A stretch of DNA of 64,000 bases from Halobacteriales archaeon (GTDB lineage Archaea > Halobacteriota > Halobacteria > Halobacteriales > SKNY01), in the NCBI GenBank assembly GCA_007118975.1, contig SKQO01000003.1, forward strand, positions 12,509-76,508, read 5' to 3'. Below the pieces are notes generated by a model that was not told the origin of the DNA, searched no databases, and saw only the letters and a list, made by a program, of their open reading frames with translations. Below, one piece after another: positions 14,817 through 29,643 of this stretch. The translations under genes were made by a program, and so were the position numbers. Within the stretch, counting starts at the first letter, position 1, and each line of letters begins with the position of its first letter.

Positions 14817-15452
14817 TTAGTTGAGAGTGATGAGCGCCCCGTCGAGCGTGAGGACGCCGCCGGCCTCGATATCGAGGTTGCCGGTGGTGCTAATCTGGAT
14901 ACTTGGTGCCTCGATGCTGATGCTCGCATCGCTCGAAATCGACAGTTCCCTTGCAGCGCCGTCGAATTCGATTCGATTTCCTCCGGTATCCTCGACGGTC
15001 ACCGTCTCGCCATCGTCATCAAGCTCGATCGTGTGTCCGGCAGCCGTTTCGAGCGTGACTCCTTCCTCGCCGCTTCCGTCTGCGAACGTCAGTTCATGGC
15101 CACTGCGCGATCGTATTTGTCTGATATCGTTGTCCGGGTCGGGGGCGTCCGTTGGTGGTTCGTCGTCGCCGTTCCAGAGGGAACCCACGACGTACGGGTA
15201 GTCGATGTCACCGTTCTCGAATGCGACGAGCACCTCGTCGCCGACTTCGGGGACAAAATACGTCCCTCGATCTGGACCTGCCATGGGGACTGCAATTCTG
15301 GTCCAGTCGCTTTCCCCGGCGGTCTCGAGCCAAGGATACCGCAGGGTAACCCGGCCGCGCTGCTGGGGATCGTCGTTCTCGGCAACGATCGCCACGGCGA
15401 CACCCTGAATCGATCCCGTTCCGCTGGTCGTTGAATCTCGTGAATAACTCAT
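14817..15452 (-). CDS. Spike protein (gpV/gp5 OB-fold plus beta-helix)
   Basis: DDPQQRGRV, W.R..PMAG..G.YFVPEVGDEVLVAF..GD...PYVVGSLW. Confidence 0.92.
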   Translation of the reverse strand: MSYSRDSTTSGTGSIQGVAVAIVAENDDPQQRGRVTLRYPWLETAGESDWTRIAVPMAGPDRGTYFVPEVGDEVLVAFENGDIDYPYVVGSLWNGDDEPPTDAPDPDNDIRQIRSRSGHELTFADGSGEEGVTLETAAGHTIELDDDGETVTVEDTGGNRIEFDGAARELSISSDASISIEAPSIQISTTGNLDIEAGGVLTLDGALITLN

Positions 15453-16504
15453 CTCTCAACCTCCGTCGCAAGTCGAACGTCGAACGACGTCCGGTAGCCG
15501 CTCGTGTCGATCGTGTGCACCACGTCGGTGATGTAGTAGCGGCCAGAAAACCGCTCGCCGAGCCCCCGTAGTGAAACCGTCTGGTCGACGTCGAGCTCGG
15601 GGATGCCAATCGTCTCGGCGGAACCTTCGAAGGAGGCATCCTCCCGCTCGGTGAGGAGCCGGTCGGCGAGCCGGTCGGCCTCCTTTTGCGAGGTAACCGG
15701 CCGCTTGACCGTCCGGACGCGGTCGCCGTCCTCGTCGCCCGCAGTCCCCACGATCTCGGCTTTTTGCTCGGGATCCCAGTGGTGCACCTTGACGCCGTCG
15801 AGGGTTCGGGCGTCGGTGAACGTGGGCGAGAAGGACTCCAGGCTTTCTCCATACGTCAGTGTCAAGGATGAAGGGGCGTCGACTGCTGGTGGGCCGAATC
15901 TGAGCTCATCCGCTCGAACGTACACCTGGTAGGGGCGGCCACCGGCGGTATTTCGCTCGGCCAGCTCCACGAGGTAGTCGGCGTCCGATTCCTCGTTGTT
16001 GTATGTGACCCGGCGGCGTTCGTCCTCACCGACTGGGGTGACAGCGGCATCCAGGCCGTATGCGGCCGCGATCTCTGCAGCGATCTCGTCGTCGGTACTG
16101 TCTTCCCACCGTTCCTGCACGACACGCTTGGTCATATCGTGGTACGTGCCATAGCCACTCACCGAAATCGTCGGGGCGCCCGACGCCGGGAAGGAAGTGC
16201 CGAGCTCGCGCACGGAGCCGATGAACATCGTGGGGAGATCTTCCGGTGTTCCGTATCCCATCGCGATCTCCACGTGAACCCCGACGGGGACGTCATTCCA
16301 GTCGAAATCCAGGAACTCGCTCGCTTCGTGGTCGAACCGGGTAGCGAACGTCAGGTCGAAGTGGTCCGCGCCGTCCATCGTCGCGTCCACCGTGACGTCG
16401 CTGACGATCCCGTCCGTCTCCTCGAAGGTGGTACCACCGATCTCGACGACGAACCGAGGCACTGAGAAATCGTGGCCGAGGCCCGACAGTGCTTGTAACG
16501 TCAT
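15449..16504 (-). CDS. Baseplate hub (phage late control D / gp27-like)
   Basis: Adjacent to spike gene; ESDADYLVELAERN, FSGRYYITDVVHTI. Confidence 0.88.
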   Translation of the reverse strand: MTLQALSGLGHDFSVPRFVVEIGGTTFEETDGIVSDVTVDATMDGADHFDLTFATRFDHEASEFLDFDWNDVPVGVHVEIAMGYGTPEDLPTMFIGSVRELGTSFPASGAPTISVSGYGTYHDMTKRVVQERWEDSTDDEIAAEIAAAYGLDAAVTPVGEDERRRVTYNNEESDADYLVELAERNTAGGRPYQVYVRADELRFGPPAVDAPSSLTLTYGESLESFSPTFTDARTLDGVKVHHWDPEQKAEIVGTAGDEDGDRVRTVKRPVTSQKEADRLADRLLTEREDASFEGSAETIGIPELDVDQTVSLRGLGERFSGRYYITDVVHTIDTSGYRTSFDVRLATEVER

Positions 16505-17169
16505 CGTCGCTCCAGGGCAGGAATTCTCAATTCGGTGCCCCGTTCTAGCTCCCGTGGATTGACGATCTCGTTCGCGCGGGCAATCACGCGCCAGGCACCG
16601 GGCTTCCCGTATTCATCATTCGCGATCCCCCAGAGTGTATCACCCTCGGCGACCCGATGCACAGTGGTCGTGTCCGGGGAGTGGCGGGGTTCCTCCGCCA
16701 GTTGTTGGGCCGGCGGGGTGTACTCTCTGAACGTAACGTCCATGCGGGCCCGTACTGGCGTCCCGTCCGCCCGGAACATGGTGAAAGTCGTGTTGGCACT
16801 TTCGATCACGGATTGAAACGAGAGCTTCCCCCAGGCGAATTTCACTAACGGTGGCGCGTGTCGTTCGCCGTCGACGAGCAACAACGTGTTTACCTTATTG
16901 GTGAGCTTCCGGACGTCGTCCGGCTCCCCCTCCCGGTCTTCGTAGACATCAAAGAACAGCTCGACCGAGAGCGTCTCGGCATCACCGCTGACGAACTGCT
17001 GGAACGGTGCATCCAGACCGGGGACCTCCTGTTCGGCGTAGGTGACGCTTTTGTCGACGCTGATTTCCTCGGGGTTGAACTGGACGGCGATTTCGTCCTC
17101 CCCGGGATCGAGATCTTCATCGAGAATCTTGATCCGCGCGTCGTCGTACTCGCGGTCGGTGGCGCTCAT
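16501..17169 (-). CDS. CIS tube-initiator protein with C-terminal LysM domain (Afp7-like)
   Basis: QFNPEEI..LFFD..W..F..G.PVRA..V.F.E; LysM HRVAEGDTLWGIA..W..IA.AN. Confidence 0.9.
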   Translation of the reverse strand: MSATDREYDDARIKILDEDLDPGEDEIAVQFNPEEISVDKSVTYAEQEVPGLDAPFQQFVSGDAETLSVELFFDVYEDREGEPDDVRKLTNKVNTLLLVDGERHAPPLVKFAWGKLSFQSVIESANTTFTMFRADGTPVRARMDVTFREYTPPAQQLAEEPRHSPDTTTVHRVAEGDTLWGIANDEYGKPGAWRVIARANEIVNPRELERGTELRIPALERR

Positions 17170-18626
17170 CGTCCGCGACGCTCCCGTTCGATTCGCTCCC
17201 GTCGATCGAGTTTGCGGGTGAGCTGGTCTGCAAGGCGGTCGAGATCGATGCGGTCGGTCAGGTCGGTGGTCTCCTGTTGTCGCGCTGGCTGACGATCGGG
17301 GCGCGGTTCGGTATTCGTCTGGTCCGGTTCCGAATCGGAGTCACTCGGGCGGCTCTCGGTAGTTCGATGGAGTGACATAGGAGGACCTGACGTCGGTGAC
17401 CCGGGTTCAACGGAGGGACTCGAGGATCGCTCGGATCGAGTGCCGCTCGCCAGCTGGCCACTAGCAGTCACGGTTGTCCTCGACACGGTCAGCTCCCCTC
17501 CTGCTTGGGAAGCCGGCGGAAGATCGGCTGGTGAAGCATCAGATCGAGGGGCGGGAGTACTGGAACCCGCGAGGGAGTCGCCACCAGCGGCCTCGCCGCT
17601 CGAGAAGAGGTTTGTCACGCTCAGATCCGGCGGTGCAGAACCTGGAGGAGTGGATTCCCGCTCTGTGATCCCGTGGTGGCTCGACGGGTCTGGAGCATCC
17701 ACTGGGTCCGTGCTTGAAGAAGCACGTTCCAGGAGGCCTGGTTGGACCGCTTGTGTCTGCTCGTCGGCCGGTGTGGTTGCCGGGGATGGTGTGACGGTGG
17801 TCCGAGCCGGGGCGTGCGCACCACGACCTTGATTTCTCACCGCAGTCTCCCGCGATAGCGATCGAGCACCGGCCGTCCCCGAATCACCCTGGTCGAAGTC
17901 ACCTCCAGTTCCCTCTCGATCAGGCCAGGCTCCGCCGGTCGCGGTGCGGTGAAAACCTGCGCCCTCGGTGATCGAGTTCGACCGTACATTGTCAAAGGGT
18001 CTGAACATCGCTCGATTCTCGAGAAACGTCCGTTGGGTTTGTTGGCCCTCGGGGGGAGAAACCCTCACTGTCGCTCCGGATGGAGTATTGCCCGATCCCG
18101 GTGGGCGACTGGTCGGACGAGATCGGTCCCGGTCCTCTCCGGTCTCCCTGTGGTAGTCCGCTGCCGAAGTGGAGTGACTGGCTGGACTGATGCGGTCCGG
18201 ATTCTCGTCCCTTCGCTCGTGGTAGGGGCGCGTGACCGGCGTGAGGTGAATGGCTGATTCGACCGGGGGGTCGTTCTGCTCGCGGCGGAGGAGGTGTTTG
18301 ACGCGGAGCTCCGAGTCATCAACTGCCTCGGATGAATCGCCGATTTCCGTGGTCGGATCCGGTGGCGACGGGGGATCGCCGCCAGACCGCTGGAGAGCAG
18401 TCGGTGCTGTCCGAAAGAACGGGGAAAAGGTCAGAAGGGGCAGTGTCGACCACTGCCCGGCGACGACACTGGGATCAAGAACACGCGGGAACGATCGGAG
18501 GAGTCCCACGAAATCACCGACCGGTCGTGACACTACTCCCCGCGAGATTGCAAGATCGTTGGTCCCTCGATCCCTTGCTCCAGGGATCTGGCCCCCACTG
18601 GCGTCCTCCCCTCCGCAACGCGTCAT
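17166..18626 (-). CDS. Ser/Pro/Thr/Gly-rich low-complexity CIS protein, candidate tape measure
   Basis: Long low-complexity body; C-terminal helix LDRLADQLTRKLDRRERIERERRGR; stop overlaps LysM gene start; start codon uncertain. Confidence 0.6.
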   Translation of the reverse strand: MTRCGGEDASGGQIPGARDRGTNDLAISRGVVSRPVGDFVGLLRSFPRVLDPSVVAGQWSTLPLLTFSPFFRTAPTALQRSGGDPPSPPDPTTEIGDSSEAVDDSELRVKHLLRREQNDPPVESAIHLTPVTRPYHERRDENPDRISPASHSTSAADYHRETGEDRDRSRPTSRPPGSGNTPSGATVRVSPPEGQQTQRTFLENRAMFRPFDNVRSNSITEGAGFHRTATGGAWPDREGTGGDFDQGDSGTAGARSLSRETAVRNQGRGAHAPARTTVTPSPATTPADEQTQAVQPGLLERASSSTDPVDAPDPSSHHGITERESTPPGSAPPDLSVTNLFSSGEAAGGDSLAGSSTPAPRSDASPADLPPASQAGGELTVSRTTVTASGQLASGTRSERSSSPSVEPGSPTSGPPMSLHRTTESRPSDSDSEPDQTNTEPRPDRQPARQQETTDLTDRIDLDRLADQLTRKLDRRERIERERRGR

Positions 18627-18938: not shown

Positions 18939-21716
18939 ATGACTGACGGCCATCGCCGAACTTCTCGAGATAAAGAAGCGGGCGCCAGGCATGACGGCGT
19001 CAGCCGAACGACCCAGTCCGCTACCGGTCGCTCCCTGAAAGCGCAACTGCAGCGGGGACTCGGGAACCAGGCGGTGCGGGAACTCGACCTTCAAGAGGCG
19101 GGCTCGCCCGTGGTTAGTCACCCATCTGATCGGTCCGAACAGGAGGCAGCCCGTATCGCAACGGAGCTGTCGAGCAGACCTGACGCTTCCACTGGGAGCG
19201 CCCACCATTCAACATTCGATACCGATGAACGGAGCACACCTCCGGGGTCGACGGAGGGACCGTCGCTGCCGGCGGATCTCACCCGAGCTGTCGAGGGACG
19301 GTTCAACGACGACCTCTCCGACGTACGAATTCATACCGATTCGTCGGCGAACGACGTCGCGGAATCGATCGATGCCGAAGCATTCACCGTCGGCAATCAC
19401 ATCGGATTTGCATCGGGGGCATTTCGCCCGGATTCACGGACGGGACGGAGAGTGCTGTCCCACGAACTCGCCCACGTGCTCCAGCACCGGGGCCACGCCG
19501 GAATGAAAACACCAACCGGTATGGTCCACCGGCAAGCACGCGGCACCTCGCGTGAGACAACCGAAAACCCGCGGCCGACAGCGGAAGCCGCCGAAGAGCG
19601 TCCCTCGCCAGCACCACAGCCAGTTTCGGGCGTCTGGATCGGCAATGAAAACGATTTCACCACGCATCGGATCTACGAACTCCACGAGCCCCACGGATAC
19701 CAAGTAGACCTCCCGGAGCGACGCATCTCGATTACCGTCGAGACCGAGAGAGTCCCCTGGGTCGCGCTCGAGGAACAGATAGCGGAGATGTGGGGATATA
19801 CAATCGTGCGGGGGCCGATCCAGCTCGCGGAGTTTCATCTGTCGAACGAGCAGGTACAGGTCGAGACCGCACATTCGATTCTCGACCTGGAAACCGGCGC
19901 CTTGGTGGCCGACGTCCGCGCCTGGGCCCTCGAGGATCGATATCCCGAGTTCGAGCGGTTCAGCGAACGATATCTCATTCCAGCAACGAGCGCGGATACG
20001 GGTGTCCCCAGTGGTTCTTACCGCAACATCGGCGAGCTCGAAGAACGGCTGTCCCTGCGGTACGCGCTCGTGCGGACTGATACTCCGACTCTCGAGGGAG
20101 AAGTCTTCGATCGGTCCGTTGCGCTCGAATCGACCGACTACGCTGGCCTGGACGCGCACGGGAATCGATATGAGGTATGGCAGAACGGCGATGGATCCTA
20201 CCTCATCTACCAGTTTTCGGACGACCTACCGGGCGAGCATCTCCAGTCACATGTCCGCGGCTCGATCCCGGCCCTTGCGAGTGCCGTTTCGGAAAGCGGA
20301 CTGCAAGTGGTCAAGCAGAACCCGGTGGGACAGCCGACCGCCATGTATGTGAGAGGTGGGGAAGTCGCACACGAAGTTCGCGAGGTCGATGGTGGGCTGG
20401 AAGTCGATCTCTCCGAGGAAGGGCATGACACCATCCGCACCGGAGCGCCCGACATCGACGCCCTCGGCTTCAGCCTCCCGGACGGGTATCTAGTCCATGA
20501 CATCGTGAGTGGCAGGTACAGTCGATCGAAATACGGGGGATTGGCCGGAACACTTGGGCCGGACCGATTCGAAGAATCGGAGGCGCCGGCCCTCGAAGCG
20601 GTCGAGGTCGTCACTCACACCGGCGACAGCGAGGAAAAATCCGCCGTCGAGGCGACAGACATCCGCGAACAATGGCTCCACGCGATCGAGACCGCGGAAT
20701 CGGTGCTCGACAACACGTGGGAACAGTACTCCAACTACCGCACACAGTATAATGATTCGCGGGTTATGGCGACCACCGCGGGGGTCGTCGAGTTCTTCAG
20801 CCGTGCATCGTTCGACCCGACCGAGTACTACCAGGCGAGGACGCACTTCAACAACGCACGATCCGCCATCGTCACGCATCCGATCAACGTCGAAGAGGCA
20901 GCGCATGAACTCCACGCGGGCGAGAGCATGATTGCCGACGTCCAGCGCGAATACGCCGAGTTCATGCAGCAAAATATCGATACCGGTGAAGCGATAGTCG
21001 ACCACCTGGAAGACATCGAAGATGCCTCACAGTCGGTTATCGAAACGATCGCCAAGGCCAAGTACGGTACGTACGGCGGGATCGTCATCGGGGCCGTTTA
21101 CCAACACATGGGGCAGGATGCCGCCCGCCAGTTAACGGAAGGGCATCTGGCGAATCTCGATAACGAGCAGCGGCAAACTGCGTGGGCGGAGGTCGACTGG
21201 AGTGAGAATGTAGGGGGCGTCGTCCGAACGAGCATCCAGGGGATTCTGACGGACCTGATCAACAGTGGGATCGGAACCGGGATCGATCGGTTCGACGGTG
21301 CCGATGAGAGCACATTGGCCACGGTCGTCGAAGAGTACCTCAAAAACCTCACCGGAGAGATTGCAAGCGAGGCGGCCGAGGCGGTCGAGGGTATCGATCC
21401 CCGATCCGAGGGGTTTGAAACGTTCCTCGCGGCCCTGATCGATGGTGCAATCGCTGGGCTTGCTGAGGCTGCATCGCTCGATACCTTCGTCGATACGTTT
21501 TTCGACGTCGTGAGCGAGGAACTCGATAAACCCGGGTGGGTCACCTACGAGCGGATGGGCTGGGGAGAAGAAGTGCAGTTCGGGTCGGCCGATGACCTCA
21601 AACTCGATGACGATATTGAGCTCGACGGCGAGATTATCGAGCTGATTTCGACGCTGGAGGACCTGTTCGGGACCGTGATCGACGACGCCATCGAGAAGAT
21701 CGAAGAGCGCCGCTGA
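18939..21716 (+). CDS. DUF4157 (eCIS core) domain protein with long unknown C-terminus; candidate cargo/effector
   Basis: LQRGLGNQAV; DLSDVRIHTD..AEAFTVGNHI..LSHELAHVLQ (HExxH); inverted inside the CIS cluster. Confidence 0.85.
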   Translation: MTDGHRRTSRDKEAGARHDGVSRTTQSATGRSLKAQLQRGLGNQAVRELDLQEAGSPVVSHPSDRSEQEAARIATELSSRPDASTGSAHHSTFDTDERSTPPGSTEGPSLPADLTRAVEGRFNDDLSDVRIHTDSSANDVAESIDAEAFTVGNHIGFASGAFRPDSRTGRRVLSHELAHVLQHRGHAGMKTPTGMVHRQARGTSRETTENPRPTAEAAEERPSPAPQPVSGVWIGNENDFTTHRIYELHEPHGYQVDLPERRISITVETERVPWVALEEQIAEMWGYTIVRGPIQLAEFHLSNEQVQVETAHSILDLETGALVADVRAWALEDRYPEFERFSERYLIPATSADTGVPSGSYRNIGELEERLSLRYALVRTDTPTLEGEVFDRSVALESTDYAGLDAHGNRYEVWQNGDGSYLIYQFSDDLPGEHLQSHVRGSIPALASAVSESGLQVVKQNPVGQPTAMYVRGGEVAHEVREVDGGLEVDLSEEGHDTIRTGAPDIDALGFSLPDGYLVHDIVSGRYSRSKYGGLAGTLGPDRFEESEAPALEAVEVVTHTGDSEEKSAVEATDIREQWLHAIETAESVLDNTWEQYSNYRTQYNDSRVMATTAGVVEFFSRASFDPTEYYQARTHFNNARSAIVTHPINVEEAAHELHAGESMIADVQREYAEFMQQNIDTGEAIVDHLEDIEDASQSVIETIAKAKYGTYGGIVIGAVYQHMGQDAARQLTEGHLANLDNEQRQTAWAEVDWSENVGGVVRTSIQGILTDLINSGIGTGIDRFDGADESTLATVVEEYLKNLTGEIASEAAEAVEGIDPRSEGFETFLAALIDGAIAGLAEAASLDTFVDTFFDVVSEELDKPGWVTYERMGWGEEVQFGSADDLKLDDDIELDGEIIELISTLEDLFGTVIDDAIEKIEERR

Positions 21717-21750: not shown

Positions 21751-23946
21751 TCACTCGAAGGCGGTTCGATACTCGCCAAACGTCTCGAAATCGTGGAGCT
21801 TCCCGATCTTTTGAAACTCGCGGCGCAAGGCCCTGACCAGATGGTCCATCGTTACAGTGCCTGTATCGGCCCCCATCAACGAGGCCGTCAGGGCGACGTT
21901 CTTGATCGACCCCCCGGCCAGTTCGAAGGTGGCGAGATACTCGTAGTCTAGCTCCGCAACTGGTGTATCCGCCGGAAAGATTCCCTTCCAGATCTCCCGT
22001 CGTGCGGTCTCGTCGGGCATCGGGAAATCGACGGTCGCATTGATCCGTCGCTTGAACGCGTCGTCGATGTTGTCCTGGAGGTTCGTCGCCATGATGACGC
22101 ACCCGTCGTGGTCTTCCATCCGCTGGAGCAGGTAATCCACCTCGACGTTGGCGTACCGGTCCCGTGAATCGCCGATGTCGGTTCGTTCACCGAAGAGGGC
22201 GTCCGCCTCGTCGAAAAACAGAATGGCATTGCTGTGCTCGGCCTGGTCGAACACTCGTCCGAGGTTCTTCTCCGTTTCCCCGATGTACTTGCTGAGGATC
22301 GAGGATAGATCGAGTTTGTAAAGCGAAAGACCCACGTCGGCGGCGATTACCTCAGCTGCCATCGTCTTCCCCGTTCCAGGCGGACCAGTGAACAGGAGAT
22401 TGATGCCATTCCCCAGACTGAACTTCTCTTCGAACCCCCATTGCTCGTAGACCGTCCCCCGGTGTCTGATCCCAGCGGCGACTTCCTGCAAATGCGCCAG
22501 CGTGTCCGGCGGTAGCACGATGTCGTTCCAGTCGTACGCCGGCTCGAGCCGTTGTGCGCACCGATCCAGTGCTGATTCACTATGCATCCGACACGCTTGT
22601 TCAAAATCGGCCCTCGAGGGTGCGCCCTCGGCGATTGTCGCTGCCGTTGCAACGGCGTCCTCGATCTCGCCGCGTGTGAGGCGAAACAGTCCCGCCAGCG
22701 TCTCGAGATCAATACTGTCAGGCACCCCGCCGATATCCTTCCAGATCGCTCGTCGTTGTTCGTAGCCGGGGCGCTCGAAAGGAATTCGAGTAAGGCGATG
22801 GCGATCCAAGATCGATTGCTGTGTGGCGGACATGAGTACGTCACCGGAGACGAACACGTGACACGGGATCTCGGCGAGTTCCGAAACTACATCCTCGAAC
22901 GAGGGAACCTGCCGATCCACTCGTGTTTCGTGCTCGACCTCAGCCTGTTCGTCTCGTTCCTGTGCTTCGAGCGCCGATACCCCGTAGAGATGGAGTGGCG
23001 CACCACGGAGCCGTGCATCTCGGGCGAGTGCACCCACCTTCGTTTCGACCGGCTCATCGAGAAGTTCGTCCGCATCTATTCGGTAGAGCGGCACGTCCAC
23101 GCGGCCGGCGACCGCCTCGATTGCGAGGCAGGCTCTGCGCACGTCCGGGCCCGTACAGGCTACAAATTCGAAGCGGTCGGGCGAACGTGGTGGCTTGTTT
23201 GTCCCAGCGAGCTGGTTTGAAATCGAGCGAAGCTGTGATCGGTGAGTCCCGATCCCTGCAACGTCGTCGAGATCGGTTGTTGGGCGCACGAAAGTACCTT
23301 CGGTCTCCAGCTCCCCTGTTGCATCGTCACCCTCCAACAAATACGAAACGACGGCTGAGGGGATTCGAGCCTCGCGCCCGGGACGGGTGGACCCACCTTC
23401 GAGACGAACCAGTAGTTCTCTCCGAAGGGTGCCGCGTGGTGCAAACAATCCCGTGAGCGAGAGCGGATCGGTCGTTCCCGCCGCCAGCACCCGTCGGAGC
23501 AGTTCCTCGGTGGGTCGTACCCGCGTGATGTCATCGCGGAGGTACCCGAAAATCTTCTCGTACTTTCGGTCGAGGTCGGGTAGCAACGCCAGCAGGAACG
23601 CGTCTCGTTCGAGGGGCGTTAATCCAAACTCGTCGGCGACCCTGACGAGACGGAGATCGACACCCTCGGCAGCACTCTTCCGTTCTTTTCGTCGCACGTG
23701 ATCGGTCAAGCGATCGAGTTCCGGCGAACGCGTGGCCGACCCGGACGAGCGTTCGGTTTCGGGGTCAAGTAGTCGAGCCACTTCTTCGTCGGAAACAAAA
23801 TAGCCGCCCATCCCCTGTTCACGATCGACACCGTCGCTCCAGCAATCCTCGACGTGGCGACGGAGCAACAGCTCGGCCCGGCCACACTCCGCTCGCAGGT
23901 GTTCCAGATTGCTCTCGTATGCTTCTACCGCCTGTTCGCGTGCCAT
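21751..23946 (-). CDS. CIS AAA+ ATPase (Afp15/Pvc15-like)
   Basis: Walker A GPPGTGKT, SKYIGETEKNL, Walker B LFFDEAD, DRYANVE. Confidence 0.93.
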   Translation of the reverse strand: MAREQAVEAYESNLEHLRAECGRAELLLRRHVEDCWSDGVDREQGMGGYFVSDEEVARLLDPETERSSGSATRSPELDRLTDHVRRKERKSAAEGVDLRLVRVADEFGLTPLERDAFLLALLPDLDRKYEKIFGYLRDDITRVRPTEELLRRVLAAGTTDPLSLTGLFAPRGTLRRELLVRLEGGSTRPGREARIPSAVVSYLLEGDDATGELETEGTFVRPTTDLDDVAGIGTHRSQLRSISNQLAGTNKPPRSPDRFEFVACTGPDVRRACLAIEAVAGRVDVPLYRIDADELLDEPVETKVGALARDARLRGAPLHLYGVSALEAQERDEQAEVEHETRVDRQVPSFEDVVSELAEIPCHVFVSGDVLMSATQQSILDRHRLTRIPFERPGYEQRRAIWKDIGGVPDSIDLETLAGLFRLTRGEIEDAVATAATIAEGAPSRADFEQACRMHSESALDRCAQRLEPAYDWNDIVLPPDTLAHLQEVAAGIRHRGTVYEQWGFEEKFSLGNGINLLFTGPPGTGKTMAAEVIAADVGLSLYKLDLSSILSKYIGETEKNLGRVFDQAEHSNAILFFDEADALFGERTDIGDSRDRYANVEVDYLLQRMEDHDGCVIMATNLQDNIDDAFKRRINATVDFPMPDETARREIWKGIFPADTPVAELDYEYLATFELAGGSIKNVALTASLMGADTGTVTMDHLVRALRREFQKIGKLHDFETFGEYRTAFE

Positions 23947-24390
23947 TTATCCGACTCCGAACGCCCGGAGGCCCTCGTGTGCAATCTCGAGGGTTTCGAT
24001 CGCGACGTCGCTCCCCTCCGCGGAGAGGTCGGGACCCTCCCAGCGCACGGGATATCCGTTCTGGAACTCCCACCCTCGCACCTCGACGCCGGATTGATCG
24101 AGCAGAATGATACGGCCAGTTCGTCGCTGTGCGGGTCCATGAAGCGACTCGGCGACCCACGTCCACAGCTCGTGTGAATTCGTGAGTCCTTTCTGAAACG
24201 TGAGGTTTGGAAAGGTAATTCGCGTCGGCAGCGAGTGGGTGTAGTGGTTGCGCCCGCCCTCCTTGTACTCCTCGGTCTCGACCTCCATCTCGAGACCCTG
24301 TACATCAGAGAAGCCCGCAACGAGCAACGAGTCGAGTTCGACGTGAAACCGGAAATCGAGATACGGGTCGATCCGCTCGCCGGTCGTCAT
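23947..24390 (-). CDS. Tail tube protein (T4 gp19-like), second copy
   Basis: DPYLDFRFHVE..GFS..YKEGG..W.F...P..W.GP.L.A....AIE.LE..HEG. Confidence 0.93.
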   Translation of the reverse strand: MTTGERIDPYLDFRFHVELDSLLVAGFSDVQGLEMEVETEEYKEGGRNHYTHSLPTRITFPNLTFQKGLTNSHELWTWVAESLHGPAQRRTGRIILLDQSGVEVRGWEFQNGYPVRWEGPDLSAEGSDVAIETLEIAHEGLRAFGVG

Positions 24391-24406: not shown

Positions 24407-24574
24407 TCATGGCTCCGATTCCTCGTTCATCCGTTCGTTGATGGCGCTTATCTCCTCGCACCACCGGCGACGTTCCCAGTGGGGCATCTCGAGAATCGTC
24501 TCGTGCTCCCAGCCGAAGTGGTAGGCCACGAAGGCGACCTCCTCGAACAGTTGGTCGACTGGATAGCCCGTCAT
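24407..24574 (-). CDS. DUF6760-like small CIS protein (55 aa; not in ORF track)
   Basis: Manual translation MTGYPVDQLFEEVAFVAYHFGWEHETILEMPHWERRRWCEEISAINERMNEESEP; ATGA overlap with upstream chaperone stop. Confidence 0.85.
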   Translation of the reverse strand: MTGYPVDQLFEEVAFVAYHFGWEHETILEMPHWERRRWCEEISAINERMNEESEP

Positions 24575-24972
24575 TCCGCCTCCGCGTTTCCCGCGACCAC
24601 CTCGTCCTGACCGTGTACCTCGACTGTGAAGGACTCACCACAGTCCGGACAGGTTGTCTCGATTGCGTCCGCCCCTTGGGTGTTGATGCGCTCATACAGC
24701 CCCTGCAAGTATTCCAGATCGGAGACGAACAGGTTCTCGATGACGTGCGGTGTCACATTGTCGAGTGTGCCGAGGCGCGTCACGACTCGTGCGAGCAGGA
24801 TGACTGTCAGATAGGAACCGTTCGACTGTACCCGTGGATCTTTCAGAGGCTTGATCTCGTCTGCCGCCGTCGCGAGCCGCATCACCCCCTCCCGATGGAG
24901 ATTCCCCTCGTCGTCCGCGTATCCCTGCGGCAGAGTGAACTCGAATTCCGTTTGGAGGACGCCTCCACTCAT
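24571..24972 (-). CDS. Tail assembly chaperone-like CIS protein with C-terminal CxxC
   Basis: EFEFTLPQGY..HREGVMRLATAADE..DLEYLQGLYERIN..CPDCG; follows tube gene. Confidence 0.8.
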   Translation of the reverse strand: MSGGVLQTEFEFTLPQGYADDEGNLHREGVMRLATAADEIKPLKDPRVQSNGSYLTVILLARVVTRLGTLDNVTPHVIENLFVSDLEYLQGLYERINTQGADAIETTCPDCGESFTVEVHGQDEVVAGNAEAE

Positions 24973-25001: not shown

Positions 25002-25442
25002 TCACTCCACCCGGGCCATCCCTTCGTGTTCGATCTCCATGCTCTCGATCGCGACCTCTGCACCTTCGGCGTCGAGGTCCGGCGCGTCGTAGCTCGACGG
25101 CCACGCCTTCCGGAACTCCCAGCGGGCGCCCGGGTTACCTTCCTCGTCGAGGACGATCACCGCGATATCCTGACGAGCGTCGTCGACATTGCCTCGTTCG
25201 ACCTGTTCGCGCCACTCCCAGAGCTCGATGGAATCGTCGGTGACGCCAGACTCGAGCGACAGCGTGCCGAAGTCGTTGAGCCCCCAGAGCTTGCGCATGG
25301 TAGGCCGATCGTTTCCTTCGCGATACTCCACGGGATCCGTCGAGTTCTCCGGCAAGGTACAGCTGCTGAAGCCGGCCTTGACGAGGTCGTCAAACTCGAG
25401 CAGGAATCGCGTATTCCGGTAGGGTCCGTGTCTGTCTGCCAT
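25002..25442 (-). CDS. Major tail tube protein (T4 gp19-like)
   Basis: PYRNTRFLLE..AGFS..EYREG..W.F.KAWP..EHEG; directly after sheath. Confidence 0.94.
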   Translation of the reverse strand: MADRHGPYRNTRFLLEFDDLVKAGFSSCTLPENSTDPVEYREGNDRPTMRKLWGLNDFGTLSLESGVTDDSIELWEWREQVERGNVDDARQDIAVIVLDEEGNPGARWEFRKAWPSSYDAPDLDAEGAEVAIESMEIEHEGMARVE

Positions 25443-25454
25443 GATTTTGCTCCG

Positions 25455-27743
25455 TTAGTCCGCACTCCCCGTCCACTGGGAAATTCTGAAGATGACGAAT
25501 TCGGCCGGTCGAACCGGCGCCACGCCGATCTCACAGATCAGCCGTCCGTTCTCGATGTCGCTCTGGGTCATCGTGCTCCGGTCGCATTTCACGAAGAACG
25601 CCTCGTCCGGGGAGGTCCCCATGAGGGCACCGTCCTCCCAGACGTCCGTGAGGAAGTTTTTAATCGTTTGGCGCACTCTCGCCCAGAGTTGCTCGTTGTT
25701 CGGTTCGAACACCACCCACTGGGTTCCTTCCTCGATCGAGCCGCGGAGGAACAGGAACAGGCGGCGGACGTTGACGTACCGCCAGTTCGGATTGCTGGAG
25801 GCGGTCCTGGCACCCCATACCCGAATTCCCCGACCACGGAAGGCACGGAGGCAGTTCACTCCACGGGGGTTGAGGACCTCCTGTTCGCCCTTGGTGATCG
25901 TCCGTTGTAATCCCTCGATGCCACGAATGACCTCGTTGGCGGGCGCCTTGTGGACGCCGTGATTGGCGTCGCTCCGAGCAAAGATCCCGGCAATGTGGCC
26001 TCCGGGCGGCATCTCCTCGACCATGCCCGTGATCGGATCGATGACCTCGACCCACGGATAGTAGAACGCGCCCATGTCGGTGTCCTCGGGGGGTCTCAGG
26101 TCACCGACGGGGCCGGGGTTTGCCTCCGCCTGGAGGATCGCGAACCGATCGTCCATCGCGTGACAGTGCTCGATCAGCGGATCGGTCACGTCGTGTTCGT
26201 GTTCGTCGGGAATGCAGACGATGGCGAGTTCGTCGAGTTTTTCGAAGCCCGCGAACCCGGTTCGGTCCTCGGGGGGCAGTGTTGCGTCCCCCTCGTAATC
26301 ACCTCGCTCGATCTCGTTGTCTTCGCCGCCGTCGAGCCAGATCGGACCGGCGGCCGGATCGGGACGGCCTTTGCCGGTCTTTTCCAGATCGACCAGAACG
26401 GAGACGTTGTTCACTTGCTGGACGTAGAAGTTGCTCGAGGACTCGTGGGGGGAGAGGTCGTCGAAGACCTCTTCGACGTCGGGCGATGCGACCTCGTCGT
26501 TGTCGGGGTCGGCGTCTCCGGCTTTTGCGTCCGCATAATCATCAGCATCGCGCCAGTATCGAATCTTCAGTTTGAACAGTTCGTTGCGACCGGGCTCGTA
26601 CATCGAGGCGTCCTCGATCACGATCGCGACGTGATCGCCCCACTCGCCCGGGCCAACGGCGTCGACGTCCACTGCCTCGTCGGTCCACCCGCTCAGCTCG
26701 ATGACAATCGGAGCATTGTCGCCGTCGTGGTCGAGAAGGAGGGTCGCTTCCCGTCCTCCAATCGAGTGATTCGGCGAGAACGTCACCCCAACGGTGGTCT
26801 CGGGTTCCACGTCGCCATTCGGGCCAGGTGTATCATCGTCATCATCCTCCTGGCCGAGCGTTATCGTCCCGTCGTCATCGAGATCGTACTGCTGGTGATC
26901 CGGGCCGATAATGATGGAGTCCTCCAGGTTTAGTTCGATGTCCTCGCCGCCTTCGTGCTGGACCACCAGGTCAAGCGTCGCCTCGCCGTCGTCCTCGTCT
27001 GGATCGACCATGCCGAAGTCAAGCCTATCTTTGTCGACGGAGAGAACGTCCGCGTCGGACTCGTCGGCGTTTTCCCCCGTCAGGGTGACAGCAACCGGTT
27101 CGACGTCGCCACCCGGATCAATCACCAATCGCGCCCAGTGTCGCCAGGTGTCGCTCTCGGGCTCGAAGGTAACGTCGAGTTGCTTCCCATCCTCCCCTGG
27201 TTCGATGACTTGTGTCTCGCCATCCCCGGTGTCGTCCTCCCACGCGTACGAAAAACCGGTATCCTCCATCGTGGACTCGACGGTTACATCGTCGTCCAGG
27301 ACAACTTCGATCGGATCGTCGTCAGTATCTCCCGTATGCTTCAAAACGACTGGCTCGGTCGAGTCTTCGTCCCCATCGACGGACCCGAACGCAAGCTCGA
27401 TTCGATCGGCCGTCAGTACCGTCGGGAGCCGATCGTCAAACGGCGTTCCGAGCGGAATCCCCGCACTCGCGGATCGATCTTCCTCAGCCGTGATACGACC
27501 GAGGAAACACCGGCTTCCGCCGTTGGCGAAAAAGCCCTCCACCGCACTGGCCAGGTAGCTATCCGGGAGGTGTTCACCAAAGGTTCGTTCGTAATCGGCA
27601 AAGCTGGTCAGGAGCCGCGGATCCGTCGGCCCACGCTCCGTGGGACCGAGAAATCCCGCCGTACTGGTGCTGACCCCTTCCAGTGGGGCCGCACCACGTT
27701 CCTCCTCTTCGACGTAAACGCCAGGAGCAAGATACTCAGCCAT
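25455..27743 (-). CDS. Contractile tail sheath protein with two inserted Ig-like domains
   Basis: MAEYLAPGVYVEE, FFANGG, GVHKAPAN, VWGART, YVNVRRL, FEPN, PAEFVIFRI. Confidence 0.96.
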   Translation of the reverse strand: MAEYLAPGVYVEEEERGAAPLEGVSTSTAGFLGPTERGPTDPRLLTSFADYERTFGEHLPDSYLASAVEGFFANGGSRCFLGRITAEEDRSASAGIPLGTPFDDRLPTVLTADRIELAFGSVDGDEDSTEPVVLKHTGDTDDDPIEVVLDDDVTVESTMEDTGFSYAWEDDTGDGETQVIEPGEDGKQLDVTFEPESDTWRHWARLVIDPGGDVEPVAVTLTGENADESDADVLSVDKDRLDFGMVDPDEDDGEATLDLVVQHEGGEDIELNLEDSIIIGPDHQQYDLDDDGTITLGQEDDDDDTPGPNGDVEPETTVGVTFSPNHSIGGREATLLLDHDGDNAPIVIELSGWTDEAVDVDAVGPGEWGDHVAIVIEDASMYEPGRNELFKLKIRYWRDADDYADAKAGDADPDNDEVASPDVEEVFDDLSPHESSSNFYVQQVNNVSVLVDLEKTGKGRPDPAAGPIWLDGGEDNEIERGDYEGDATLPPEDRTGFAGFEKLDELAIVCIPDEHEHDVTDPLIEHCHAMDDRFAILQAEANPGPVGDLRPPEDTDMGAFYYPWVEVIDPITGMVEEMPPGGHIAGIFARSDANHGVHKAPANEVIRGIEGLQRTITKGEQEVLNPRGVNCLRAFRGRGIRVWGARTASSNPNWRYVNVRRLFLFLRGSIEEGTQWVVFEPNNEQLWARVRQTIKNFLTDVWEDGALMGTSPDEAFFVKCDRSTMTQSDIENGRLICEIGVAPVRPAEFVIFRISQWTGSAD

Positions 27744-27808
27744 GGTCAACTCCAACGCCTGACCCGCCCTGTTCGTGCTTGACGGACATGGGTAATCACC
27801 ATATCCAA

Positions 27809-27918: not shown

Positions 27919-28623
27919 TCACGACGAATTCGGTTCGAGAACGATGTCGGCAACGATAGTCTGGCCTTCCTTAATCACCACCGTGTATGCCGCCTCGAGG
28001 TCCGTGTTAGGTTTGCTTGCGAGGATCGTCGGGTCCGCACTCCCGATTGTCACGAACATGTCCTCGTCCGTGGAAGCGTTGTCGTTCGGCGGTCCGTTTC
28101 CCGGAGTGTCAGACGAGGAGTCACCGCGGTCATCGAGATATGGTTCGACGTTTACGAACGGAAGGACGAATTCGCCGTCGGGACTGCTCCGGGTCTCAGC
28201 GACGACCTCATCGTCGTCGAGGACTTCGAGCACGACATCCCCAATTCGGGGAGTTTCCTCCCCCTCCGCCACGCGAGTACTGCCGCGAACCAGGGTGCTG
28301 TGACTTGGAAATCGGTAAGCCGGTGCAGGTAGTAGTTCGATGTCCGACACCATTTCCTCGGTGTCATCTTCCTCGAGATCGACGACGTCGCACTCGCACG
28401 TCTCCGGCAAGTACGGGCCGTTCGGCTCCACGGCCACCGTGACCGCTGTGATCTCATCCGGTAAGTCCGTGACCACGTAGTAGCCACTCCTCGTTCGGAC
28501 GATACCCTCCGGACGGTCCACAAGTTCAATCGAGAACCCACCAGTTGGTGGGCGGCCGGTCACCGAATCGGTTACTTCGATCACGAGGGCGAGTTTCAGG
28601 CGATCGACCTCCCACTGCACCAT
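27919..28623 (-). CDS. CIS-associated protein with carboxypeptidase-regulatory-like beta-sandwich domains
   Basis: D..TG.P, L.P.P.Y.FP...T.VRG, T..DG.F motifs; coupled to Pvc16-like gene. Confidence 0.65.
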   Translation of the reverse strand: MVQWEVDRLKLALVIEVTDSVTGRPPTGGFSIELVDRPEGIVRTRSGYYVVTDLPDEITAVTVAVEPNGPYLPETCECDVVDLEEDDTEEMVSDIELLPAPAYRFPSHSTLVRGSTRVAEGEETPRIGDVVLEVLDDDEVVAETRSSPDGEFVLPFVNVEPYLDDRGDSSSDTPGNGPPNDNASTDEDMFVTIGSADPTILASKPNTDLEAAYTVVIKEGQTIVADIVLEPNSS

Positions 28624-29204
28624 TATCGATCACTCCGGCCGTGACTAAACGTCGCTTCTGTCACTCGTTCAATCGGTGTCTCACGTTCGGATTCGATCAG
28701 CACTGGCGTCACGGCACAGGTTACCGACGGGAGATACGGCGTCTCCTGGAACGTGTTCCAGACATCGAGGATTTCCCCCATCGATCGGTTCTCCAGTGCA
28801 ATGTGGAGTCTATCATCGCCACCGAGATCCCCCTTGAGAGCTGACCCGCTGATGATCCGGTTGTCCCAGATAATCCGCATCGCCTCACCGAGTTCCTTGT
28901 GGTAGTCGAGCCTGGATGGCGCTTGTTCGTGGGCCTCATCCTGTGGCGAAGGGTGGGCAGTCACAAGGTAGGACAACTCGAGGGCGAGCGGATCACCGGC
29001 TGCGACATCATCTTCGACCGGTTGCGGTTCGTTCGAGAGATGGATGTTCCGTTCGACATCGTAGAGAAACAACGAGAGCCCTGCCTGGCTCGGGTCGAAG
29101 TCAGCTGGAGAAGCAAGTGCCACGGTGACCCCCGAGGAAACTTCCGCGCGGAGCAGGCTGACGAGCGTTTCACCGACATCTGCGATGGCGTCCGAACCCG
29201 CCAC
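28623..29204 (-). CDS. Pvc16/DUF4255 family cap (tail terminator)
   Basis: AIADVGETL..LSLFLYDV..N..L.L.YLVTA..W.....Y.PSV...V.PV; GTG at 29204 preceded by GGAGG. Confidence 0.87.
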   Translation of the reverse strand: MAGSDAIADVGETLVSLLRAEVSSGVTVALASPADFDPSQAGLSLFLYDVERNIHLSNEPQPVEDDVAAGDPLALELSYLVTAHPSPQDEAHEQAPSRLDYHKELGEAMRIIWDNRIISGSALKGDLGGDDRLHIALENRSMGEILDVWNTFQETPYLPSVTCAVTPVLIESERETPIERVTEATFSHGRSDR

Positions 29205-29643
29205 CTCAGCGACCTCCAGGAGAACAGCGTTTCGTATGTGAGGGGCGGCACATGACGCTGGTACCATGATTCGCTATGGGTAAAATACCTTTCCACCGGT
29301 AATGGCTAGTGTGTTGCACCCTCCGATTAGATTCAGTAACGACAGTGATGGCACAGGGCGAGTGATGGAAAGCCAGAGTCGATATCGAAACGTTTCGGCG
29401 AAGTGTATCATCCGCGAGCGGGATACACTCTCACGCCCGGCGACGGTACACTGGCCCGGAACTCGTCTAGAATGTCATCCTGAACGGGATCACGCTCGAT
29501 TCAACGTATGCCGACCTGCCGAGGGCACGCGGCCCAGGTGTCCGCCAACTGCCACCGCTTGAGCAATCCCAGCCGAATGAACCCGTGCCAAGAAATGGCT
29601 CCGACGGAGAAGCCTTTGACGCTTCCGGGCCCACAAGCGACAC

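Follow-up and report, generated by a model that had tools for sequence, protein, structure and literature searches.

A probable lambda G/GT-type −1 frameshift between a tail-assembly-chaperone-like gene and DUF6760 in a haloarchaeal contractile injection system

A conserved −1 frameshift in the genes for phage tail assembly chaperones was reportedly described by Xu, Hendrix and Duda in Mol Cell in 2004; the slip site of phage lambda is G_GGA_AAG. Among cellular contractile injection systems, the ‘archaeal type VI secretion system’ of Halogeometricum borinquense, encoded on pHBOR03, was described by Zachs et al. 2024 (PMC11566945), sections of which state that homologues of the plug, the tape measure and the crown were not found, and that the system secretes DUF4157 proteins, some of them toxic to Haloferax. 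Here we analysed a stretch of 64,000 nt, hereafter the window, from a Halobacteriales archaeon (GenBank assembly GCA_007118975.1, contig SKQO01000003.1, positions 12,509 to 76,508 of the forward strand), in which a gene for a 133-aa chaperone-like protein overlaps a small open reading frame (ORF) for a protein of the DUF6760 family. We consider it highly likely that this gene pair carries a −1 frameshift of the lambda G/GT type and that ribosomes slip here, because the comparison with other loci revealed the slippery heptamer and the −1 frame to be kept across relatives, a phage counterpart of the pair and natural in-frame fusions of the two parts.

The features at the junction are as follows.

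24571..24972, minus strand: chaperone-like gene with a 133-aa 0-frame product (‘G’-like short form), matching phrog_508
24586..24592, minus strand: slippery heptamer G_GGA_AAC, the proposed −1 slip site, in phase and conserved in haloarchaeal loci
24407..24586, minus strand: segment to be read in −1 after the proposed slip, 59 codons and a stop, comprising a 4-residue linker and then the entire DUF6760 domain
24407..24574, minus strand: DUF6760 ORF of 55 aa (PF20546), a possible separate product
24571..24574, minus strand: ATGA, the overlap of chaperone stop and DUF6760 start
24579..24583, minus strand: GGAGG, 4 nt 5' of the DUF6760 ATG

The chaperone ORF is 402 nt long, and our read-out of the sequence agrees with the original prediction both in its 3' end, GCG GGA AAC GCG GAG GCG GAA TGA, and in the placement of GGGAAAC at 24592-24586 (minus strand) in the correct X_XXY_YYZ phase relative to the chaperone frame. 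The heptamer lies 19 nt ahead of the stop and is the only XXXYYYZ heptamer of this ORF when all phases are scanned. The ATG of DUF6760 overlaps the chaperone TGA and the DUF6760 ORF is therefore in the −1 frame, which had also been claimed to be open and to lead into the 55-aa ORF; upstream of the ATG it is indeed open for 20 codons, from 24634, and the heptamer is situated inside the zone open in both frames. A slip at this site is predicted to give a product of 188 aa, made up of chaperone residues 1-129 and 59 residues of the −1 frame. It should be added that DUF6760 in the window is provided with an initiation signal, the ATG together with GGAGG, which might act in the manner of a Shine-Dalgarno sequence in coupled or independent initiation, so that ‘no start of its own’, a feature of G/GT pairs, does not apply here; free DUF6760 may also be made from this ATG.

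Taken without its relatives, the single heptamer of the window is weak evidence and could be due to chance, with a likelihood of about 5-10%: other in-phase XXXYYYZ heptamers were counted at 17 of 7551 codons in 45 homologous ORFs, which corresponds to about 0.05 per 20-codon zone. The junction was identical in a DNA contig of a public sequencing run, which is not an independent confirmation because this run probably originates from the source sample; the one RNA run of the source sample covered next to none of the stretch.

The 55-aa ORF was assigned to DUF6760 (PF20546) with an E-value of 4.9e-27 and 94.3 bits against the Pfam gathering cut-off of 27. The 133-aa protein matched phrog_508, ‘tail assembly chaperone’, with an E-value of 5.4e-8, and had no match to a Pfam family (at E 0.01 or better) or to an NCBIfam family. 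Among 33 chaperone relatives, Pfam matches below threshold pointed to Gp41_Mu (PF23746) in eight and to Phage_TAC_7 (PF10109) in two cases (best E-values 0.015 and 0.049), and four matched T4_baseplate; some relatives go by the names ‘phage tail assembly protein’ or ‘phage FluMu protein gp41’ in some sources.

For the comparison within haloarchaea all loci with a match to PF20546 were taken, namely 45, found in 45 of the 401 genomes of the class and in 25 of its 91 genera. The chaperone gene is located directly 5' of DUF6760 in every one of the 45 loci. A conserved heptamer at the 3' ends of orthologous genes had been proposed as one check of the original prediction, and it was found in 44 of the 45 loci, where DUF6760 occupies the −1 frame and the doubly open zone contains GGGAAAY in phase (GGGAAAT in 23 and GGGAAAC in 21 loci). 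The distance from heptamer to stop is 16 nt in 34 loci and 7, 10, 19, 34, 49, 109 or 139 nt elsewhere; the chaperones range from 130 to 267 aa in total length, and the tails that bear the heptamer vary. The 30 nt 5' of the heptamer differ across all 44 loci, with a mean pairwise identity of 0.43, and the information content of this flank is mostly below 1 bit, while the six G/A positions of the heptamer carry 2 bits each. Of the 58 occurrences of GGGAAAY counted on both strands of the 45 loci (289,824 nt), 44 are the in-phase site at the junction, and in the open zones 0.098 occurrences were expected versus 44 observed.

The glycine codon of the heptamer is GGA in 44 of 44 loci, its share among the other glycine codons of these ORFs being 14%, and the codon before it ends in G in all 44 versus a background of 37%. 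Since both the rare GGA and the third-base G of the preceding codon are fixed, the constraint acts on nucleotides and not on the Gly-Asn dipeptide; synonymous sites do not vary in either frame. The core of DUF6760 was located by a motif search in 43 haloarchaeal loci (L002 and L003 were missed). The −1 ORF ahead of this core contains no ATG, GTG or TTG in 12 of the 43 and no ATG in 26, and the smallest window in which the shift must take place measures 25 nt. In one locus, L032, GGAGG stands 5 nt 5' of the DUF6760 ATG.

Most haloarchaeal DUF6760 ORFs (e.g. L004-L027) encode 70-94 aa; they have a spacer that varies and, C-terminally, a conserved motif of Gly followed by Ile/Val-Val/Leu-Leu-Gln/Arg-Asn. 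This motif is missing in the clade of the window (about 47-56 aa). Chaperone homologues of 164-211 aa were considered as candidate fusions and rejected, since they represent N-terminal miscalls, proteins with long acidic tails or a tandem duplication; the latter was observed in P0003 (211 aa), where the chaperone domain is duplicated within a single protein. Longer homologues, P0272 and P0273 (244 aa, Gallionella), are maybe similar to the duplication of P0003.

Beyond haloarchaea, a broad scan with one genome per species returned at least 590 confirmed chaperone relatives, and the best 80 of these 590 loci were analysed, to which the following counts refer; they belong to Aminicenantes, Acidobacteriota, Nitrospirota, Chloroflexota, Cyanobacteriota, Paenibacillus, Proteobacteria, Methanothrix and Methanosarcina, among others. 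Of the 80, 79 had the core of DUF6760 in the −1 frame, the copy of L064 being degraded. No ATG, GTG or TTG was available for DUF6760 in 27 of the 79 and no ATG in 51, and the shift windows were as short as 10 nt and did not exceed 40 nt in 29 loci. Within the shift window 68 of the 79 had an in-phase G_GGG_Gnn (occurrences among these 68: GGGGGAA 36, GGGGGGA 13, GGGGGGG 13, GGGGGAG 8 and three singletons), and seven had another canonical heptamer, namely GGGAAAY in three haloarchaeal loci, T_TTT_TTG in two of Paenibacillus, A_AAT_TTT in one and C_CCT_TTC in one (the loci with substitute heptamers being L096, L101 (Paenibacillus), L108 and L113); in four of the 79 shift windows a slip site was not evident. 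When the 45 haloarchaeal loci and the best 80 of 590 are combined, DUF6760 lies in −1, and never in +1, in 123 of 125. The slip sequence is swapped with its place and frame kept, and the junction therefore behaves like a real recoding site. Judged from these sequences, the proposed frameshift is evidently shared throughout a large lineage of contractile injection systems.

The substitute slip sequences at the junction roughly track genome composition. Furthermore, L075, from a metagenome-assembled genome of an uncultured Halobacteria archaeon, carries ATG GGG GAA TAG of the bacterial and methanogen type in place of GGGAAAY.

Related pairs were also present among 23 loci on viral contigs, the more distant of which have a DUF6760-like domain in −1 after an in-phase T_TTT_TTC or A_AAT_TTT; this domain is clear in L131-L135 and weak (13 bits) in L138 and L148. 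Two of them, L132 and L133, are myophage contigs with the order sheath, tube, chaperone (phrog_508 / phrog_150), small DUF6760-like ORF (phrog_10636) and tape measure, and by gene order this pair, flanked by tube and tape measure, fills the canonical slot of G/GT. Among 144 DUF6760 representatives, 61 matched phrog_10636 and 27 matched phrog_1756, ‘tail protein’. Moreover, three natural in-frame fusions of chaperone and DUF6760 were identified, P0235, P0260 and P0271 (Candidatus Uabimicrobium, 9.3-Mb contig). A tblastn search of GenBank phages returned no match for the window chaperone or for P0329. Short IMG/VR contigs (L126-L130, 4.6-9.9 kb) encode chaperones with 51-56% identity and a G_GGG_Gnn junction; by their look these are fragments of injection systems and not phages.

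These data support the two interpretations put forward in the original prediction. That this archaeal contractile injection system keeps recoding of the G/GT type is backed by the conservation of the heptamer, the fixed synonymous sites and the orthologues without a start codon, and that DUF6760 is the ‘T’ moiety of the pair is backed by the myophage pair between tube and tape measure, the phrog_508 match and the natural in-frame fusions; the assignment of DUF6760 as the ‘T’ part of a chaperone frameshift is, on these comparisons, a supported one. Most ribosomes would accordingly be expected to stop at TGA and to release the 133-aa chaperone, while a fraction would slip by −1 on G_GGA_AAC, the Gly and Asn tRNAs re-pairing on GGG and AAA. 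The slipped ribosomes would read four linker codons and then the full DUF6760, giving the 188-aa fusion, which would correspond to lambda gpGT or P2 E+E'. If lambda is taken as the model, an extended tape-measure-like or hub protein would be held by the chaperone part and docked by the DUF6760 part to tube or hub subunits during assembly, with neither part presumably staying in the finished particle. The slippage, its efficiency and the binding partners of each moiety are what we infer.

Several observations weigh against a frameshift of this kind, and some of them agree with translational coupling only, whereby ribosomes would stop at TGA and reinitiate at the overlapping ATG, yielding proteins of 133 and 55 aa with the heptamer being incidental. 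Coupled reinitiation could supply DUF6760 without slipping, because in the window the ATG overlaps the stop in ATGA and GGAGG is placed 4 nt ahead of it; an ATG precedes the DUF6760 core in 17 of 43 haloarchaeal loci as well, and RefSeq annotates two separate coding sequences in H. borinquense and Nostoc. The locus with the highest chaperone identity among the sampled relatives (80%), L039 (G312:C1), has no heptamer; at its junction, near 1480-1500 of the locus, the stop is followed by a spacer of 9 nt and then, in the same frame, by DUF6760, whose own ATG is preceded by the Shine-Dalgarno-like GAGGTGGAG. Having lost the heptamer, L039 is a natural uncoupled variant. Streptomyces phage BRock also has both modules as separate, non-overlapping genes, and fusion is hence not obligatory everywhere. 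Another point is that 44 of the 72 in-phase G-run sites counted in the 68 loci of the broad set (GGGGGAA 36 and GGGGGAG 8) are not textbook X_XXY_YYZ, for which we infer that either the P-site glycine tRNA alone slips or a G-U pair is tolerated at the second position. The loci of the sets of 45 and 80 are partly related to one another, and locus counts overstate the number of independent events because the sampled loci include each other's relatives; the unalignable flanks and the distribution over 25 genera and many phyla are what points at long-term maintenance. Finally, no conserved downstream stimulatory structure was found family-wide.

Translational coupling, however, leaves unexplained why GGGAAAY stands in phase in 44 of 45 loci amid unalignable flanks, why synonymous positions are fixed, how DUF6760 is reached in loci without ATG, GTG or TTG (12 of 43 haloarchaeal and 27 of 79 among the best 80 of 590) and why the frame of DUF6760 is −1 in 123 of 125 loci and +1 in none, and we regard coupling alone as unlikely. 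Less likely still is that GGGAAAY serves another need, such as a C-terminal Gly-Asn of the chaperone or an RNA-level signal, with DUF6760 being translated from non-standard starts. The Gly-Asn is kept in the 0 frame of 44 loci and RefSeq gives an ATA start for the Nostoc DUF6760, as this explanation would have it, but a protein motif would not confine glycine to the rare GGA or hold constant the last base of the codon before it, bacteria, Paenibacillus and phages use at the same place different slippery sequences encoding different residues, and Rfam had no match at the junction. An artefact, that is, a sequencing or assembly indel splitting one gene, or a decaying pseudogene, might be suspected in a genome of 175 contigs and 78% completeness; it is scarcely credible given that 44 further genomes of haloarchaea, several of which consist of one contig, have the same split, as do complete plasmids, that contigs covering the junction showed no indel variants and that both ORFs are clearly conserved at the protein level.

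Concerning the stimulatory RNA, 70-nt folds downstream of the site had a mean z of −1.25; the window fold had a z of −1.37, with 16 of 200 shuffles folding equally well, and RNAalifold gave −2.44 kcal/mol with no covariation. In most loci the 0-frame stop is within three codons of the site. Upstream of the heptamer, at −14 to −8, there is a GAGGAGG-like consensus, whose possible role as a stimulator pairing with the anti-Shine-Dalgarno sequence is inseparable from coding because it coincides with Glu/Asp codons of the acidic tails. A strong hairpin was observed in one genus (L015, L016, L019-L023, L026) about 12 nt after the heptamer, with a stem made of Arg-Leu-Tyr-Glu-Pro codons, z down to −4.7 and, in L022, one apparently compensatory pair of synonymous changes. 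As a family-wide stimulator this hairpin was rejected, since it failed the family-wide pair count (column register off by 2-3).

The gene pair is embedded in a cluster with the following neighbours.

25002..25442, minus strand: tube gene (gp19-like), adjoining the chaperone upstream; PF06841, E 8.5e-38; phrog_4542, tail tube
23947..24390, minus strand: second tube-like gene, adjoining the pair downstream; PF06841, E 9.8e-42; phrog_4542
25455..27755, minus strand: sheath (Phage_sheath_1, Phage_sheath_1C)
28623-29267: Pvc16_N cap protein
21751-23946: AAA ATPase
18939-21716, plus strand (opposite strand within the cluster): eCIS_core/DUF4157 protein of 925 aa
16501-17169: LysM tube initiator
15449-16504: VgrG-related spike

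The window thus contains, in similar order, the core set of the H. borinquense type: sheath, tube, LysM initiator, VgrG-like spike, DUF4255/Pvc16 cap, AAA ATPase and DUF4157 cargo. Known here from its genes, the cluster is a haloarchaeal contractile injection system of this type, resembling type VI secretion systems. The chaperone-DUF6760 pair comes directly after the tube gene, from which it is separated by a gap of only 29 nt, and is followed by the second tube gene and then by the AAA ATPase. In H. borinquense an annotated 50-aa ORF (HBOR_RS20125, L150 4845-4997) is placed between tube and chaperone. No recognisable tape measure gene was found among the window genes in Pfam and PHROG scans. 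Just upstream of the LysM initiator there is a 486-aa ORF (17166-18626, minus strand), rich in Ser, Pro, Thr, Gly and Asp, of low-complexity look and with a short, charged, helical-looking C-terminus, which matched no Pfam, NCBIfam or PHROG family; judged by its position, it could be a tape-measure-like client of the chaperone or a cargo.

The same junction was recognised in systems under study. On pHBOR03 of H. borinquense, G_GGA_AAT is in phase 16 nt before TGA, the chaperone is 66% identical to that of the window, and the gene order is sheath, tube, ‘hypothetical protein’ (the chaperone), ‘DUF6760 family protein’, tube, DUF4255, AAA ATPase and DUF4157. The words ‘frameshift’ and ‘chaperone’ are absent from the main text of PMC11566945. 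Plasmids of Streptomyces clavuligerus and Nostoc carry an in-phase CTG GGG GAA with DUF6760 in −1, and the start given by RefSeq for the Nostoc DUF6760 ORF is ATA. A literature search, with subscription journals outside its coverage, found no published account of DUF6760 or of this frameshift in injection systems.

Frameshifts of tail assembly chaperones are already known in phages, and the comparisons support that the window adds a case in a cellular archaeal injection system. DUF6760 thereby gains a role, that of a frameshifted ‘T’ extension of a tail assembly chaperone, and an unannotated 188-aa protein is predicted in this genome, with equivalents in hundreds of injection-system loci, including the actively studied systems of Halogeometricum borinquense, Streptomyces and cyanobacteria. 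Phage-style recoding would in that case have persisted in both domains when phage tails were domesticated as cellular machines, and the junction would offer a conserved, readily tested example of programmed −1 frameshifting in a cellular gene of an archaeon, as well as a natural set of slip sites that can replace one another (GGGAAAY, GGGGGAA, TTTTTTG, AAATTTT) for studying the rules of slippage in high-salt, high-GC organisms. For annotation, it means that DUF6760 ORFs without a start are overlooked or given odd starts (ATA in Nostoc), and inventories of ‘missing’ assembly components should reckon with the chaperone-DUF6760 fusion.

A bolder reading may be put forward tentatively, and taken jointly its four parts seem to us rather doubtful. 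It would hold that every contractile injection system of this large lineage, including the haloarchaeal systems resembling type VI secretion systems and the Streptomyces cytoplasmic, cyanobacterial, acidobacterial and methanogen systems, relies on a hidden fusion of chaperone and DUF6760 that slipping ribosomes produce; that this fusion is the missing length- or initiation-determining factor where a tape measure was reported lacking; that G_GGG_GAA, on which only the P-site glycine tRNA re-pairs cleanly, constitutes a widespread unrecognised class of −1 slip sites in most bacteria and methanogens; and that the haloarchaeal case belongs to a very small number of conserved recoding events affecting cellular genes of archaea.

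As to the likeness to other known proteins, gp26 and gp51 of T4 have reportedly been proposed as tail assembly chaperones of T4-like phages by Vladimirov, Gautam and Davidson in Virology in 2022; they come from separate genes, unlike the pair of the window. In a language-model search from which PF20546 was left out, DUF6760 was nearest to clusters bearing Gp51_C (score 0.91, 24 of 30 hits), the family being present on about 30% of their members. The DUF6760 profile had no significant alignment with T4 gp51 in hhalign (probability 0.07%), and of the chaperone profile only the CPxCG segment aligned, to the C-terminal end of gp26 (54%) and to gp51 (10%). A Pfam scan of 32 DUF6760 members with E up to 10 gave PF20546 and noise and no Gp51_C, which is perhaps absent from that copy of Pfam. 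Homology of DUF6760 and gp51 may hence be treated as a lead only. The spike plug Cis6/Afp6/Pvc6/Alg6 of contractile injection systems is described in PMC8894136 and PMC12546770 as helical and small, at about 55 aa, with its gene close to those of the tube, and as required in assembly. DUF6760 resembles Cis6/Pvc6 in size (about 55 aa) and in its position near tube genes, with no sequence link. With E allowed up to 10, the DUF6760 profile matched no chain of the Protein Data Bank, in a copy where the presence of Cis6/Pvc6 was unchecked, and searches of the same bank by sequence or profile gave no meaningful match for chaperone or DUF6760; the identification of DUF6760 as the spike plug Cis6 was rejected for want of sequence support.

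The system of H. borinquense (Zachs et al. 2024, PMC11566945) matches the window in gene neighbourhood, and the in-phase heptamer is present in both. With regard to phages, the pair of the window differs from those of lambda, P2 and Mu in belonging to a cellular, non-viral archaeal cluster and in that a second tube gene and then an AAA ATPase come next in place of the tape measure, and its chaperone, unlike phage tail assembly chaperones, is below the cut-off of every Pfam family of such proteins. The second ORF often has no start codon, as in the lambda/P2/Mu class, whereas DUF6760 of the window has its own ATG. Nevertheless, a weak but specific sequence link ties the chaperone to the phage class, through phrog_508 and, below threshold, Gp41_Mu and Phage_TAC_7. 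Like gpG/gpGT of lambda, gpE/E+E' of P2 and gp41/gp42 of Mu, the window has a pair of overlapping ORFs directly after the tube gene, with the second ORF in −1 and a slippery heptamer in phase only a few codons ahead of where the first ORF stops; from the lambda site this heptamer differs in its last base.

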